From a virus (lineage: Duplodnaviria > Caudoviricetes): a DNA stretch of 64,000 bases. The notes below the pieces were generated by a model. The model had not been told where the DNA came from. It saw only the letters and a program-made list of their open reading frames with translations, and searched no databases. A program made the position numbers and the translations under genes. The stretch covers positions 32,001-96,000 of the IMG/VR virus record IMGVR_UViG_3300028048_000066. The stretch is one strand, 5' to 3'. Position 1 is the stretch's first letter, and the number at the start of each line of letters is the position of its first letter. Shown in pieces: positions 3,385 through 49,123 of the stretch.

Positions 3385-3906
3385 ATGGCAAACGAAGTGA
3401 ATTCAATTAACTATATTGGAAATGTTACAATAAAGTATGTAACAAAGTCTGGAAGACCAGTTAAAAGCATTTACAGACACAATAAAGGTTGCAGACCATT
3501 ATTTAACTTTATAACAAGTTGTATGATGGGTAAATATAATGAGAACAATAGACCAGTATACTTAATGGTGTACAAAAAGGGTGAGGAAGTTACAAGTGAA
3601 AATCTTGGAACACCAGTACTCCCTAACTTACAATACATACTTAACACAGAAAGTAGTTATGATAGTGAAAATGATGCTGGTATTGTAAAGTATAAGTTTA
3701 TGTTCCCAGGAAGTGTGCTAACAAATGATGGAGATGTAATTGCACTATTTAATTATAATAATGCAAACACATATAAAATTGAAGGTGCAAATGTTCCTTC
3801 TAATTATGTTGAATTAACTGGTGCAGACATCATCAACCAAAGCGATGTAATAAATCAAAATGTAATAGTAATATGGGAATTACAATTCTCAAACAAAGCA
3901 GAATAA
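3385..3906 (+). CDS. Putative baseplate/tail-fibre attachment protein
   Basis: Position in tail module; AAGGAG RBS; beta-rich, ending VIWELQF. Confidence 0.4.
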   Translation: MANEVNSINYIGNVTIKYVTKSGRPVKSIYRHNKGCRPLFNFITSCMMGKYNENNRPVYLMVYKKGEEVTSENLGTPVLPNLQYILNTESSYDSENDAGIVKYKFMFPGSVLTNDGDVIALFNYNNANTYKIEGANVPSNYVELTGADIINQSDVINQNVIVIWELQFSNKAE

Positions 3907-8830: not shown

Positions 8831-8841
8831 TGCTAAATTAA
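8831..8841 (+). promoter_or_regulatory. TGCTAAATTAA motif, putative phage late/middle promoter
   Basis: Identical 11-mer at 37724, 47495, 48322 and 63554; intergenic, upstream of an RBS. Confidence 0.55.
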
Positions 8842-46254: not shown

Positions 46255-46899
46255 ATGGAAAAGGAATATCAAAAAATTGGAAATGTATTTAAGTTTGATG
46301 AAAAGTTCAGAACAATCGTAGGATTAAATGAACCATTTGAAACACTAAAAAATATTATCTGGCAAGGCACAGAGAAAATTGATGGTACTAACATTAGAGT
46401 TCATTGGGATGGACACGATATAGAAATTGCAGGTCATACAGATAAAGCACAAATACCAACAAAACTAAAAGAATATTTAGAGAACTTATTTTTAACAAAA
46501 GAAATGGAATATGTCTTTGAACAAATCTTTGCAGAGAAAGAAGCATATATCTTTGGTGAAGGTTATGGTACTGGTATTCAAAAATATGGTGAAGATTATA
46601 TTGGAGATGGTAAAGTAGGTTTCATTATTTTTGATATTAACATTGGTGGGTTTGACTTAAAGAGGGAAAGTGTAGATGACATTGCTGGTAGATTAGGAAT
46701 ACCTTCTGTACCAGTAGTATTTGAAGGAACACTAGACCAAGCAAAAGAATATGTATTAGAACATCATATGTCAACTCTAAATAATGGTAAGCACGAAATG
46801 GAAGGTTTGGTATTAGTTCCAAAGGGTATTCAATTATATGATAGTAAAAGACATCTTATTAAATGTAAATGTAAATATAGAGATATTATAAAAGGATAA
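46255..46899 (+). CDS. RNA ligase (Rnl2-like nucleotidyltransferase domain)
   Basis: TEKIDGTN (motif I), FGEG, FDI, EGLV, KCK. Confidence 0.8.
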   Translation: MEKEYQKIGNVFKFDEKFRTIVGLNEPFETLKNIIWQGTEKIDGTNIRVHWDGHDIEIAGHTDKAQIPTKLKEYLENLFLTKEMEYVFEQIFAEKEAYIFGEGYGTGIQKYGEDYIGDGKVGFIIFDINIGGFDLKRESVDDIAGRLGIPSVPVVFEGTLDQAKEYVLEHHMSTLNNGKHEMEGLVLVPKGIQLYDSKRHLIKCKCKYRDIIKG

Positions 46900-47505: not shown

Positions 47506-47616
47506 GTGAAACATAAAAGGCAAGATATACACAAGGTTTAGAATACTAACACAAAGTCACCCAAAGAGATAGGACTCAAAGGGTGATTAAAACTATTAGG
47601 ATAGGAGATGAGAGAT

Positions 47617-48021
47617 ATGTCAAACCAAAAAGATTATGGATATTATTCCAAGAAGTTAAACAAACCTTTTGATTCTCTTGATGAGTTGAGAGAAGCAGAA
47701 GAGGAAGAAGAAAGAAAGGAAGCACTAAAGCAACAAGAGATTGAAGATAAGAAATCCCTTGCAAAGAAAGTTGAGGATTCTTATAAGTCCTATATTGAAG
47801 TTCTTAATGCAAGTAAGGAAGAACTCAAGAAGGTTCAAGAAGAATTGGACAAGAAGGTTTCAGACTCTTACAATGAGTATGTAGAAGCAAAGAATGAGTT
47901 TATAGATAAGTATGGTTCTTTCCATATGACCTATAAAGACAAAGAACCTAAAGTAGATACAAGTTATTCAAATCTTCCAAGTGTATTCTCAACTATATTT
48001 GAAGATTTCTTTAAGTTCTAA
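47617..48021 (+). CDS. Coiled-coil phage protein (monocistronic; start 47608 or 47617)
   Basis: YYSKKLNKPFDS..FIDKYGSFH; flanked by an 18-bp imperfect inverted repeat. Confidence 0.7.
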   Translation: MSNQKDYGYYSKKLNKPFDSLDELREAEEEEERKEALKQQEIEDKKSLAKKVEDSYKSYIEVLNASKEELKKVQEELDKKVSDSYNEYVEAKNEFIDKYGSFHMTYKDKEPKVDTSYSNLPSVFSTIFEDFFKF

Positions 48022-48055
48022 AATAAAGTAGCAAATCTAAATCTTGTATATATAG

Positions 48056-48088
48056 AAGTGGTGAAAATAAAAATTTCATCACTTTTTT
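48056..48088 (+). terminator. Rho-independent terminator
   Basis: AAGTGGTGAAA / TTTCATCACTT plus T run. Confidence 0.8.
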
Positions 48089-48098
48089 ATTTTACCCA

Positions 48099-48127
48099 TT
48101 GAAATTATAAAAATATTGTGGTATAAT
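48099..48127 (+). promoter_or_regulatory. sigmaA promoter with extended -10, no downstream ORF
   Basis: TTGAAA-N17-TATAAT, TGn at 48119. Confidence 0.75.
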
Positions 48128-48133
48128 ATATGT

Positions 48134-48318
48134 GACAGGTGTGTGAGTAAAACCTCCGATTTTGTGTGATTATTATGTGATTATTAAATGGTAAGCATAA
48201 ACAAACTACTTACACACCCTTGCTTACCTCAACAATGAATAATAAATAAGACGGTTATAGTCATTTAAATGCTCCAGAGAAAAGGATACTTTGATTTAAT
48301 ATCAGGTGTCCTTTTTTC
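48134..48318 (+). ncRNA. Candidate ~185-nt structured small RNA (pseudoknot-type pairing)
   Basis: Own promoter and terminator (48277-48318); 12-bp helix 48138-48149/48207-48218; 8-bp helix 48190-48197/48221-48228; no RBS-led ORF. Confidence 0.65.
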
Positions 48319-48321
48319 ATA

Positions 48322-48332
48322 TGCTAAATTAA
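48322..48332 (+). promoter_or_regulatory. TGCTAAATTAA motif, putative late promoter
   Basis: 17-bp identity (TGCTAAATTAAATGATT) with 63554. Confidence 0.55.
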
Positions 48333-48334
48333 AT

Positions 48335-48442
48335 GATTGAATGTTGATGGGGAAGTCCTTATCCTTTCAACTTCTTCATTTAACATACATATATAAAGGT
48401 TCTATCTATGTTGAGTAATCCATAGGTAGAACTTTTATTTTT
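48335..48442 (+). ncRNA. Candidate ~105-nt two-hairpin small RNA with CU-rich loop
   Basis: Hairpin 48341-48386 with loop CCUUAUCCUUUCA; 18-bp terminator stem 48393-48438; no RBS-led ORF. Confidence 0.6.
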
Positions 48443-48462
48443 AGAAACTTATTAAAAAGTGC

Positions 48463-48491
48463 TTGACATTTCTATTTAAAAGTAGTATAAT
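48463..48491 (+). promoter_or_regulatory. Strong early sigmaA promoter
   Basis: TTGACA-N17-TATAAT. Confidence 0.85.
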
Positions 48492-48520
48492 AGTATAAGA
48501 AATAGATAGTGAGGTGTACT

Positions 48521-48751
48521 ATGAATCAAAACGAGATTAGAGAAAAGTATTTGGATATGTTGAGTGCAAAATACAATGGAGTTGGCGATTTAGTATTCAG
48601 CGATTTTGATGATATTTTGAATTTAACAGAAGGATATGTAAATGCAGTTATTGATGTTAAATCTGCATTAGGTATTAAAGATAGAATTGATGTTGAATCT
48701 TTCTATAGAGATGCTAGAAAGTTTTTTGTGAGTAAACAAAAGCAATACTAG
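48521..48751 (+). CDS. Hypothetical early protein
   Basis: GAGGTG RBS before ATG 48521. Confidence 0.6.
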   Translation: MNQNEIREKYLDMLSAKYNGVGDLVFSDFDDILNLTEGYVNAVIDVKSALGIKDRIDVESFYRDARKFFVSKQKQY

Positions 48752-48760
48752 AGGTGAATT

Positions 48761-49123
48761 ATGAACAAAGAAATTATTGAAGTAACAACTTATGAGCAAC
48801 TTGGAGAACTTTACGACCATAATGCAATGACTTGGGAAGGTCTTGTTGAAGAAGATTTTCAAGAAGCAATTGATAGGTGTGGTGATGAAGGTGCGAAAGG
48901 ATATTTAACGAAGGGAAAAGTTATGAACGAGATTTGTCATCTTGAAGGTAAATATGCTTATCCAGATGACTTGAATATTTTTTCAGTCTATCCATTTAAG
49001 GGCATTGCTTCTAACTATTGTGCGAGATGGATGGATAACATTATTGATGGTATTGCATATGATGTAGGAGACTACCACCCATTTTATTATCCAGCATCTG
49101 TTATTGAGGTTAGCAATGAGTGA
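48761..49123 (+). CDS. Hypothetical early protein
   Basis: GAGGTG RBS. Confidence 0.6.
   Translation: MNKEIIEVTTYEQLGELYDHNAMTWEGLVEEDFQEAIDRCGDEGAKGYLTKGKVMNEICHLEGKYAYPDDLNIFSVYPFKGIASNYCARWMDNIIDGIAYDVGDYHPFYYPASVIEVSNE

Follow-up and report, generated by a model that had tools for sequence, protein, structure and literature searches.

What does a phage keep in the longest stretch of its genome that carries no gene? This question is raised by a member of the Caudoviricetes (IMG/VR record IMGVR_UViG_3300028048_000066), whose complete genome of 148,163 bp (30.6% G+C) has direct terminal repeats and whose sequencing runs come from cattle rumen or gut samples. The window, by which we mean the whole stretch of 64,000 nucleotides analysed (bases 32001–96000 of that genome), contains the genome's longest interval without genes at positions 48022–48508, and within this interval lies a unit that we term RNA1. 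A first-pass annotation, made from the letters alone, had noticed there a promoter, two non-nested helices, an ACCTCC motif, a tandem repeat and a terminator, and all of these are present where it placed them. Our analysis indicates that RNA1 is very probably a real structured RNA gene; it has no coding capacity, is conserved in relatives, and occurs in a genome that has almost lost the pentamer GGAGG. We propose, with a probability of about 0.38 for the whole statement including its mechanism, that RNA1 is a stand-alone small RNA (sRNA) gene whose product pairs in trans with ribosome-binding sites of the GGAGG type.

Anatomy, fold and conservation of RNA1

Relatives were gathered through homologues of the protein encoded upstream of RNA1 (few, from metagenome assemblies) and of a 120-aa protein encoded downstream (many), and their contigs were fetched. 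Four versions sharing a common gene context were compared, namely the window, L001 and L242, to which we refer as the W-type lineages, and a distant lineage, L014. The upstream protein is 79% identical to that of the window in the L001 group and 49% in L014, where the unit is placed after the homologous gene; L242 was found through the downstream protein, which is 82% identical. In the window, RNA1 and its promoter are composed as follows.

48099–48127, + strand: promoter P1, host sigma-A type, score 11/12 (TTGAAA 48099–48104, 17-nt spacer, TATAAT 48122–48127, extended −10 TG 48119–48120)
48134–48318, + strand: RNA1, predicted transcript of ~185 nt, its start placed 7 nt past the −10 element and its end in the U-run of T1
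48138–48149, + strand: helix 1, 5′ arm, pairing with 48207–48218 (12 bp including one G-U)
48150–48189, + strand: loop 1, 40 nt, with ACCTCC at 48152–48157 (CCUCC at 48153–48157) and a tandem 11-mer at 48165–48186
48190–48197, + strand: helix 2 (pseudoknot), 5′ arm, pairing with 48221–48228 (8 Watson-Crick pairs, interleaved with helix 1)
48198–48206, + strand: loop 2, 9 nt, of which 48198–48205 are identical in the window, L001 and L242 and 48206 differs in L242
48207–48218, + strand: helix 1, 3′ arm, from sequence and fold
48221–48228, + strand: helix 2, 3′ arm, beginning 2 nt past helix 1, with equal 2-nt spacing in L014
48229–48276, + strand: A-rich tail from the pseudoknot to the terminator, ~45 nt of it deleted in L242
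48277–48318, + strand: intrinsic terminator T1 of RNA1, folding as an 18-bp stem followed by U6

The genome has 13 promoters of the form TTGA[AC]A-N16-18-TATAAT, P1 among them, and they lie without exception on the + strand; from this asymmetry, together with a GC skew that is positive throughout the genome, almost all genes can be placed on the + strand. On the + strand of 48134–48268 there is no open reading frame (ORF) of at least 20 aa. A 16-codon ATG frame within RNA1 was considered as the source of a small peptide and rejected, since it lacks a ribosome-binding site and the ATG is gone in L242. T1 was overlooked by a simple terminator scan, probably because its bulged stem lies beyond the stem and loop rules of that scan. 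With its own promoter, no ORF and an intrinsic terminator, RNA1 has the features of a generic gene for a trans-acting, base-pairing sRNA, and the earlier view of the locus as an orphan, non-coding and structured unit is borne out.

The whole transcript is predicted to fold with a minimum free energy (MFE) of −43.4 kcal/mol, which corresponds to z = −3.0 against shuffled sequences. A 5′-anchored stem of at least 12 bp appears in ~0.1% of shuffles (p ~0.001 for helix 1), and an 8-bp loop-to-tail helix starting at most 5 nt after helix 1 appears in 1.4% of loop shuffles (p = 0.014 for helix 2). Just past its TATAAT, L014 carries helices of 14 and 15 bp that have other sequences and are interleaved in the order of the window with a 2-nt junction; the first was reached by 0 of 2000 shuffles and the second by 0 of 5000. 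The two interleaved helices of an H-type pseudoknot are beyond chance both in the window (12 + 8 bp) and in L014 (14 + 15 bp). Furthermore, the pairing is specific to the RNA strand, because the G-U pair of helix 1, found in all W-type copies, would be an A-C mismatch on the opposite strand.

The three W-type lineages share identical sequence in the −10 region, in both helices and in eight of the nine loop 2 bases, and the −10 region with the initial transcribed sequence of P1 is conserved in L001, L242 and L014. The exceptions within the helices are confined to L242, where helix 1 has lost its loop-side pair and the outer G-C of helix 2 reads A-U (a direct reading that depends on the alignment; the automatic count shows a gap). 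Identity among the W-type lineages is arranged in blocks, which could reflect recent recombination. Loop 1 is hypervariable, with lengths of 40, 52 and 53 nt and wholly different sequences in the three W-type lineages. Its 11-nt tandem repeat, to which the first-pass annotation had drawn attention, occurs in the window only and is absent from L001 and L242, so that it is a lineage-specific rather than a conserved feature. A motif that does recur, in the window, L001 and L014 and independently of CCUCC, is GUGUGAUUA. The A-rich tail seems dispensable, since ~45 nt of it are missing in L242. In the T1 stem of 18 pairs, three pairs have changed on both sides and six on one side across three lineages, with 92.5% of cells paired.

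A covariance model, R1, built from two near-identical sequences returned L014 only when filters were off, and then at no better than E = 0.16, and MAFFT/RNAalifold applied to the window, L001 and L014 mis-registered the arms. The locus as a DNA query against the phage collection gave no match in near or distant mode; exact patterns in viral contigs (the helix 1 plus CCUCC 20-mer, the conserved 3′ block and the repeat motif) gave nothing or unrelated coding matches; and neither a scan of genome contigs for the conserved block nor single-protein locus searches with the flanking genes returned anything. RNA1 had not been recognised as a known family on first inspection, in agreement with Rfam 15, which has no match at gathering threshold in the 64-kb window; permissive matches in 47950–48550 reach at best 13–22 bits against thresholds of 56–100 (E of at least 1) and fall mostly at terminators.

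The CCUCC motif and the loss of GGAGG

CCUCC, or ACCUCC in its longer form, is the core of the anti-Shine-Dalgarno sequence of 16S rRNA. Despite the hypervariable loop 1, one CCUCC is found in each version of RNA1 (window, L001, L242 and L014), with a predicted unpaired probability of 0.45–0.90 over the four versions and a mean of 0.73 in the window. In the MFE folds of the window, L001 and L014 it has no partner resembling a Shine-Dalgarno (SD) sequence, and in the fold of L242 it pairs with the GGUG at the start of helix 1. The exposed ACCUCC of the first-pass annotation thus holds as a CCUCC that is present in every variant and predicted to be mostly unpaired, but not as a motif of fixed position. 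On the + strand of the genome CCTCC occurs three times in 148 kb, twice inside genes, and the RNA1 copy is the sole non-coding one; likewise, the only + strand CCTCC in each relative's contig is the copy in the RNA1 homologue.

GGAGG is the most depleted + strand pentamer of the genome, seen 8 times against 51.2 expected under a third-order model, which confirms, more strongly than had been stated, that the phage rarely uses it. After AGGAG the next base is A 125 times and G 4 times. The contigs of the relatives that carry the RNA, pooled to 17 kb, contain no GGAGG against 4.7 expected (P = 0.009), and have AGGAGA 14 times and AGGAGG 0 times. The ribosome-binding sites of the phage read AAGGAGA or GAGGUG and flank the anti-SD core instead of spanning it. 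From direct reading and a nearest-neighbour estimate, they would pair with the ACCUCC of the window over only 4–5 bp, as opposed to 6 bp for GGAGGU. Among the other depleted words of the genome are the complementary pairs CTTAG/CTAAG and GAGAC/GTCTC and the single words GGACC and CCTGG, a pattern that resembles restriction avoidance.

Four further relatives, G001–G004, were found through their DNA polymerase (45–54% identity). GGAGG depletion equals that of the window in G002, is moderate in G001 and is much less in G003 and G004. No RNA1-like unit follows the homologous gene in G001, G002 and G004, the three that possess this gene, although no scan for RNA1 was made of G001–G004 and the sequences of G003 and G004 were screened only for 8-mers of the 16S tail.

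The predicted RNA cassette and its surroundings

RNA1 does not stand alone in the gene-free interval, which reads in the order T0, P1, structured region, T1, 16-nt motif, second hairpin, T2, P2 and so has three terminators and three promoter-like elements inside 490 bp. The elements around RNA1 are the following.

48054–48093, + strand: terminator T0 of the upstream 137-aa gene, a 13-bp stem with T-run (terminator scan), forming the 5′ edge of the cassette
48322–48337, + strand: 16-nt phage-specific promoter-like motif, presumed middle or late, a copy of a genome-wide motif
48341–48386, + strand: RNA2 hairpin, whose 13-nt pyrimidine-rich loop (48357–48369) ends in UCCUUUC
48393–48445, + strand: intrinsic terminator T2 of RNA2, with two-sided changes at three pairs and 98.3% of cells paired
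48463–48491, + strand: promoter P2 of the downstream operon (48521), a perfect TTGACA, 17-nt spacer and TATAAT, forming the 3′ edge of the cassette

The 16-nt motif (consensus TGCTAAATTAAATGA followed by A, G or T) has ~20 copies within 2 mismatches, on the + strand only, and most are followed, 10–60 nt downstream, by a ribosome-binding site and a start codon. Window copies include those at 8831, 47495, 48322 and 63554, and a copy also precedes a gene in L014. It is presumably a phage-specific promoter class, middle or late. Used as a handle for relatives in IMG/VR, the motif gave mostly single chance matches, and G001–G004 do not have it.

RNA2 folds with z = −5.1 in the window and −5.9 in L001, and is absent from L014. 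In its stem two pairs have changed on both sides and four on one side, one pair reading G-C, G-U and C-G among the lineages, while its loop is identical in three lineages. Pooled over T1, the RNA2 stem and T2, changes on both sides are seen in eight pairs and the proportion of paired cells is 96%, a result that no shuffle or slid register approaches. These three elements have therefore been kept as RNA helices by compensatory substitutions. The T0 stem, too, is compensated in L242. We consider a predicted two-gene RNA cassette, made up of RNA1 and the neighbouring late unit RNA2, to be the best explanation of the interval.

ROOL RNA (Rfam RF03087), which is ~580 nt long, and tRNA islands are known from rumen phages (PMC5737381, PMC12286853). 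In distant relatives of the window phage, tRNA arrays and ROOL adjoin the homologue of the 137-aa gene, from which we take the position of the cassette to be that of an RNA-gene island. The window holds neither tRNA nor ROOL and has small units in their place. RNA1 shares this neighbourhood with ROOL, whose Rfam model scores 233–334 bits in the distant relatives, but has no detectable sequence or fold in common with it. In one of these phages (L144, 131 kb, from IMG/VR) a relatively G+C-rich region of ~450 nt, L144:3340–3790, lies directly after the homologous gene and 2.6 kb downstream of ROOL; by a rough screen the next ORF of at least 50 aa begins only at 3778, there is no Rfam match at gathering threshold, and the region may be another large unclassified RNA.

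Units that display a sequence like the 16S tail were also seen in related phages. In G002 (L231:6965–7046, − strand) a tRNA-Gln is followed by an 8-bp hairpin, 17 unpaired nt with ACCUCCUUUCU and a terminator (z = −4.3); 11 of the unpaired nt are identical to the 16S tail, and the unit contains the sole non-coding sense-strand CCTCC of G002. The 70-kb contig of G002 has 13 tRNAs, one of them with a CUA anticodon, and has lost GGAGG and CCTCC on both strands. At L151:3277–3310, directly after the homologous gene, a hairpin with a 15-nt loop containing CCCUCCUUUC precedes a terminator, a unit built like RNA2 of the window. L010:5880–6016 is an orphan promoter-terminator unit ending in ACCUCCUU and a terminator, and the 13 nt of L136:1121–1133, which lie 15 nt before a tRNA, match the 16S tail exactly. 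In ~92 kb of sense-strand non-coding DNA from the phage set, CCTCCTT outnumbers all others of its 35 permutations (9 copies, mean 2.8); in coding DNA it is one of the rarest (3 copies, mean 8.1). This enrichment is suggestive only, as some matches may be ribosome-binding sites of the opposite strand (two cases in G003).

Regarding the neighbouring genes, the upstream 137-aa protein (47608–48021) has an invariant YGS-HMTY stretch and belongs to no Pfam family. It occurs widely among large phages of rumen and gut (relatives L132–L163), mostly within tRNA arrays and adjoining ROOL. The phage, which lacks tRNA genes, encodes a 214-aa protein with an RNA ligase domain (PF09414, E = 1.6e-15) at 46255–46899, 1.2 kb upstream of the cassette. 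The downstream 120-aa protein (48761–49123) has more than 150 homologues at ~65% identity; contigs exceeding 200 kb carry some of them, and the label Intestinibacter sp. on some may hint at a host range in the Clostridia. Pfam and ORF screens found no toxin-like gene among nine flanking ORFs. The idea of an antitoxin, raised in the first-pass annotation, finds no support in these genes or in the unconserved repeat, and a type III antitoxin of the ToxI kind was rejected, as L001 and L242 lack the 11-nt repeat, which the window has only twice, and no toxin family appears in the flanking genes.

Expression was considered on contigs assembled from metatranscriptome runs, and two studies contained the phage or a 97%-identical relative. 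The upstream 137-aa gene forms a discrete contig with word depths of 9–68 in the rumen metatranscriptome contigs of these two studies. Contigs X2, X10, X14 and X17 span the upstream gene and the downstream operon and leave 48033–48519 uncovered; a contig of the 97%-identical relative continues past 48057 into that relative's own terminator sequence, and one of the window phage begins at 48520. Since only contigs were available and such libraries commonly lose small RNAs, the gap counts neither for nor against transcription of RNA1.

A possible role in translation and its alternatives

How might such an RNA act? In our proposal, the host-type and presumably early promoter P1 would start the RNA ~4 nt before the 12-bp helix 1, the 8-bp helix 2 would tie the bases that come after helix 1 back to the 3′ part of the loop and so build a pseudoknotted scaffold, and T1 would end the RNA at ~185 nt. 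The scaffold would keep the long, fast-evolving, CCUCC-bearing loop open, and CCUCC, together with flanking bases specified by the variable loop, would pair in trans with sites of the GGAGG type and block translation initiation there. The targets would most probably be host messages, and phage messages would escape because they use AAGGAGA or GAGGUG sites and have been purged of GGAGG. We regard as doubtful a wider version of this proposal, according to which translation carries a self/non-self code: GGAGG would be purged, the early and the late RNA would show CCUCC and UCCUUUC, and they would silence host messages with GGAGG or retune ribosomes through a tail-binding protein while AAGGAGA and GAGGUG of the phage pass, related rumen phages doing likewise with unrelated scaffolds.

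The proposed pairing has precedents in bacteria. In the streptococcal csRNAs (CcnA-E), an unpaired segment complementary to the SD sequence lies between structured parts, and a block of initiation has been proposed (PMC3091779). Like RNA1, the csRNAs are stand-alone RNAs of Firmicutes bounded by promoter and terminator, and RNA1 likewise bears a mostly unpaired anti-SD core. However, the csRNAs consist of two simple stem-loops with anti-SD and anti-AUG (CAU) in one linker, are driven by CiaR and reside on a chromosome or plasmid of Streptococcus, whereas RNA1 has a 12-bp helix with a pseudoknot and no anti-start codon, uses a sigma-A-type promoter common to 12 other promoters of its phage, resides in a rumen phage, is about twice as long and has no Rfam match. 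Membership of the csRNAs was therefore rejected on anti-start codon, architecture, promoter and location. In sRNAs of the RoxS/RsaE type of Bacillus and Staphylococcus, unpaired C-rich motifs pair with the G-rich ribosome-binding sites of several mRNAs. These RNAs are chromosomal and stress-regulated and have several CCCC/UCCC regions. RNA1, in contrast, has one CCUCC in a hypervariable loop, L242 and L014 having two motifs of the CUCC type; it has no match in the Rfam scan and does not belong to this family either. The early endoribonuclease RegB of phage T4 discriminates messages by the GGAG of their SD sequence and spares other sites; RegB is a protein nuclease, whereas in our proposal an RNA would be the discriminating agent. 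A Pfam search for RegB matched no homologue, and as its control was silent as well, absence is not shown by it.

A number of observations weigh against pairing in trans as the function of RNA1. Ribosomes would be abundant competitors, and a match of 5–6 nt falls far short of what specific repression needs unless further pairing or a protein assists. None of the 166 phage translation starts screened stands out in its complementarity to either loop of RNA1, to its tail or to the loop of RNA2 (best target z about −3 to −3.7), and by direct reading no anti-start codon (CAU, CAC or CAA) occurs at csRNA-like spacing 5′ of CCUCC in the window, L001, L242 or L014. An antisense 18-mer of loop 1 had 3 matches in 596 Gb of genomes, within chance expectation. 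At L249:823–850, the start of a 634-aa leucine-rich repeat surface protein in a metagenome-assembled genome of Clostridia, 19 nt are perfectly complementary to loop 1 and cover the GGAGG site; we rejected it as evidence of a target because the pairing ends at 19 nt and the number of matches is at chance level. Furthermore, the lineages with RNA1 number four only, and at the position of the window's CCUCC, L242 reads ACUCC and L014 UCUCC, their CCUCC being elsewhere in the RNA. Covariation of the two helices, proposed early on as a test, came out in part: L014 keeps the topology with different helix sequences, but helices 1 and 2 give no covariation among the three W-type lineages, because neither varies there. 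MAFFT, a covariance model and pairwise alignment place the 5′ arm of the window's helix 1 on the second helix of L014, which also aligns to the CUCC and GUGUGAUUA motifs that follow this arm. The topology is conserved between the window and L014, and one-to-one homology of the helices appears ambiguous from these alignments. The loss of GGAGG may also have another cause, since G002 loses the motif on both strands, as restriction avoidance predicts; its coding strand has GGAGG 8 times against 56 and CCTCC 3 times against 19. The window genome in turn avoids CTNAG and GTCTC/GAGAC on both strands, and its CCTCC count (3 against 5.6 expected) is too low to separate self-avoidance from restriction avoidance. 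Either of the two may account for the loss of GGAGG, and under either the CCUCC kept in RNA1 is notable. Altogether, the first description of this locus stands as to an orphan, non-coding, structured RNA with an interleaved fold and a kept CCUCC, and gives way as to the repeat and the place of the motif.

Could the short motif address a protein instead of messages? The objection of a weak seed would then fall, because a short motif is enough for a protein, and we take this as a serious rival, if an unlikely one: CCUCC would mimic the 3′ tail of 16S rRNA and titrate or recruit the ribosomal protein bS21, the assembly GTPase Era or a host nuclease at the 16S 3′ end, and thereby retune or protect translation. 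The invariant helix sequences of the W-type lineages beside freely compensating terminators would suit sequence-specific protein recognition. Stretches of 11–13 nt in G002 and L136 are identical to the 16S tail, and that of G002 follows a hairpin, as the tail of 16S rRNA follows helix 45. As a precedent, P6 of OLE RNA from Bacillota contains a functionally important, exact copy of the 16S anti-SD core, CCUCCU, that binds bS21 (PMC12054373). There an SD-like strand within a 600-nt RNA pairs with the mimic, which serves to bind protein, whereas in RNA1, which is small and phage-borne, the motif is predicted to be mostly unpaired; with no SD-like partner for CCUCC in the folds of the window, L001 and L014, and a GGUG partner in that of L242, we rejected a duplex mimic of the OLE type. 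Moreover, the window matches the 16S tail in ACCUCC alone and differs in its flanks, no bS21 gene was found in the phage, and a protein decoy by itself would leave the loss of GGAGG from phage messages unexplained.

Three other explanations appear less likely than pairing in trans. RNA1 might be a structured RNA with another task, for instance to serve as an anti-defence decoy, to guide or scaffold a phage protein, or to oligomerise through helix 2, with loop 1 as the specificity element and CCUCC incidental or structural. We hold this to be improbable, since CCUCC is kept in all four lineages though it is among the rarest sense-strand motifs, related phages have independent anti-SD-like displays, and the neighbouring protein genes have no recognisable RNA-guided function; on the other side, RNAs that act as guides or decoys under diversifying selection typically combine a conserved scaffold with a hypervariable internal segment, relatives hold tRNAs and ROOL in this island, GUGUGAUUA recurs without regard to CCUCC, and the position of CCUCC is not fixed. 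That the helices are fortuitous inverted repeats in a DNA-level boundary of late and early transcription, with stacked terminators and promoters and possibly a replication or packaging signal, would fit the genome's largest non-coding gap, its density of terminators and promoter-like elements and the block-wise W-type identity, which could be recent recombination. This is highly improbable given that duplex DNA cannot form both interleaved inverted repeats, that the G-U of helix 1 becomes a mismatch on the other strand, that L014 retains the topology with other sequences, and that the terminators and the RNA2 stem covary as RNA helices; the cumulative GC skew climbs monotonically, and a replication origin at the cassette was rejected because the skew has no inflection there. 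The order of promoter, structured RNA and terminator finally resembles that of a transcription-attenuation leader, in which the pseudoknot would sense a ligand or protein and control read-through of T1 as an attenuator, riboswitch or put-like antitermination RNA. To such a cis-acting leader we give very little credence: in the window at least 48 nt separate T1 from the pseudoknot, no alternative antiterminator pairing was found when the sequence was read directly, no Rfam riboswitch matches at RNA1, and the downstream genes have promoters of their own, because T1 precedes a promoter, T2 and a perfect-consensus promoter (in L014, a late-type motif and a gene). With the terminator apart from the pseudoknot and downstream units independently promoted, an attenuation leader or riboswitch was rejected.

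In summary, an sRNA that displays an anti-SD sequence is a kind of element already known from bacteria; new are the pseudoknotted phage scaffold, the hypervariable loop, the late companion RNA and a genome almost free of GGAGG. To our knowledge, few sRNAs of virulent phages have a known function, and none has been described from rumen phages of Firmicutes. RNA1 is a compact candidate that lends itself to experiments, with its promoter and terminator defined, its scaffold pseudoknotted and its motif only 5 nt long, and the near-absence of GGAGG from phage messages yields a falsifiable prediction on how phage and host translation could be kept apart. If the loss of GGAGG is due to restriction avoidance, RNA1 would still be a new conserved structured family. 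If the link between RNA1 and GGAGG is true, it would represent a new route of host shut-off or ribosome retuning, and could explain why displays resembling the anti-Shine-Dalgarno sequence recur in the RNA islands of phages.

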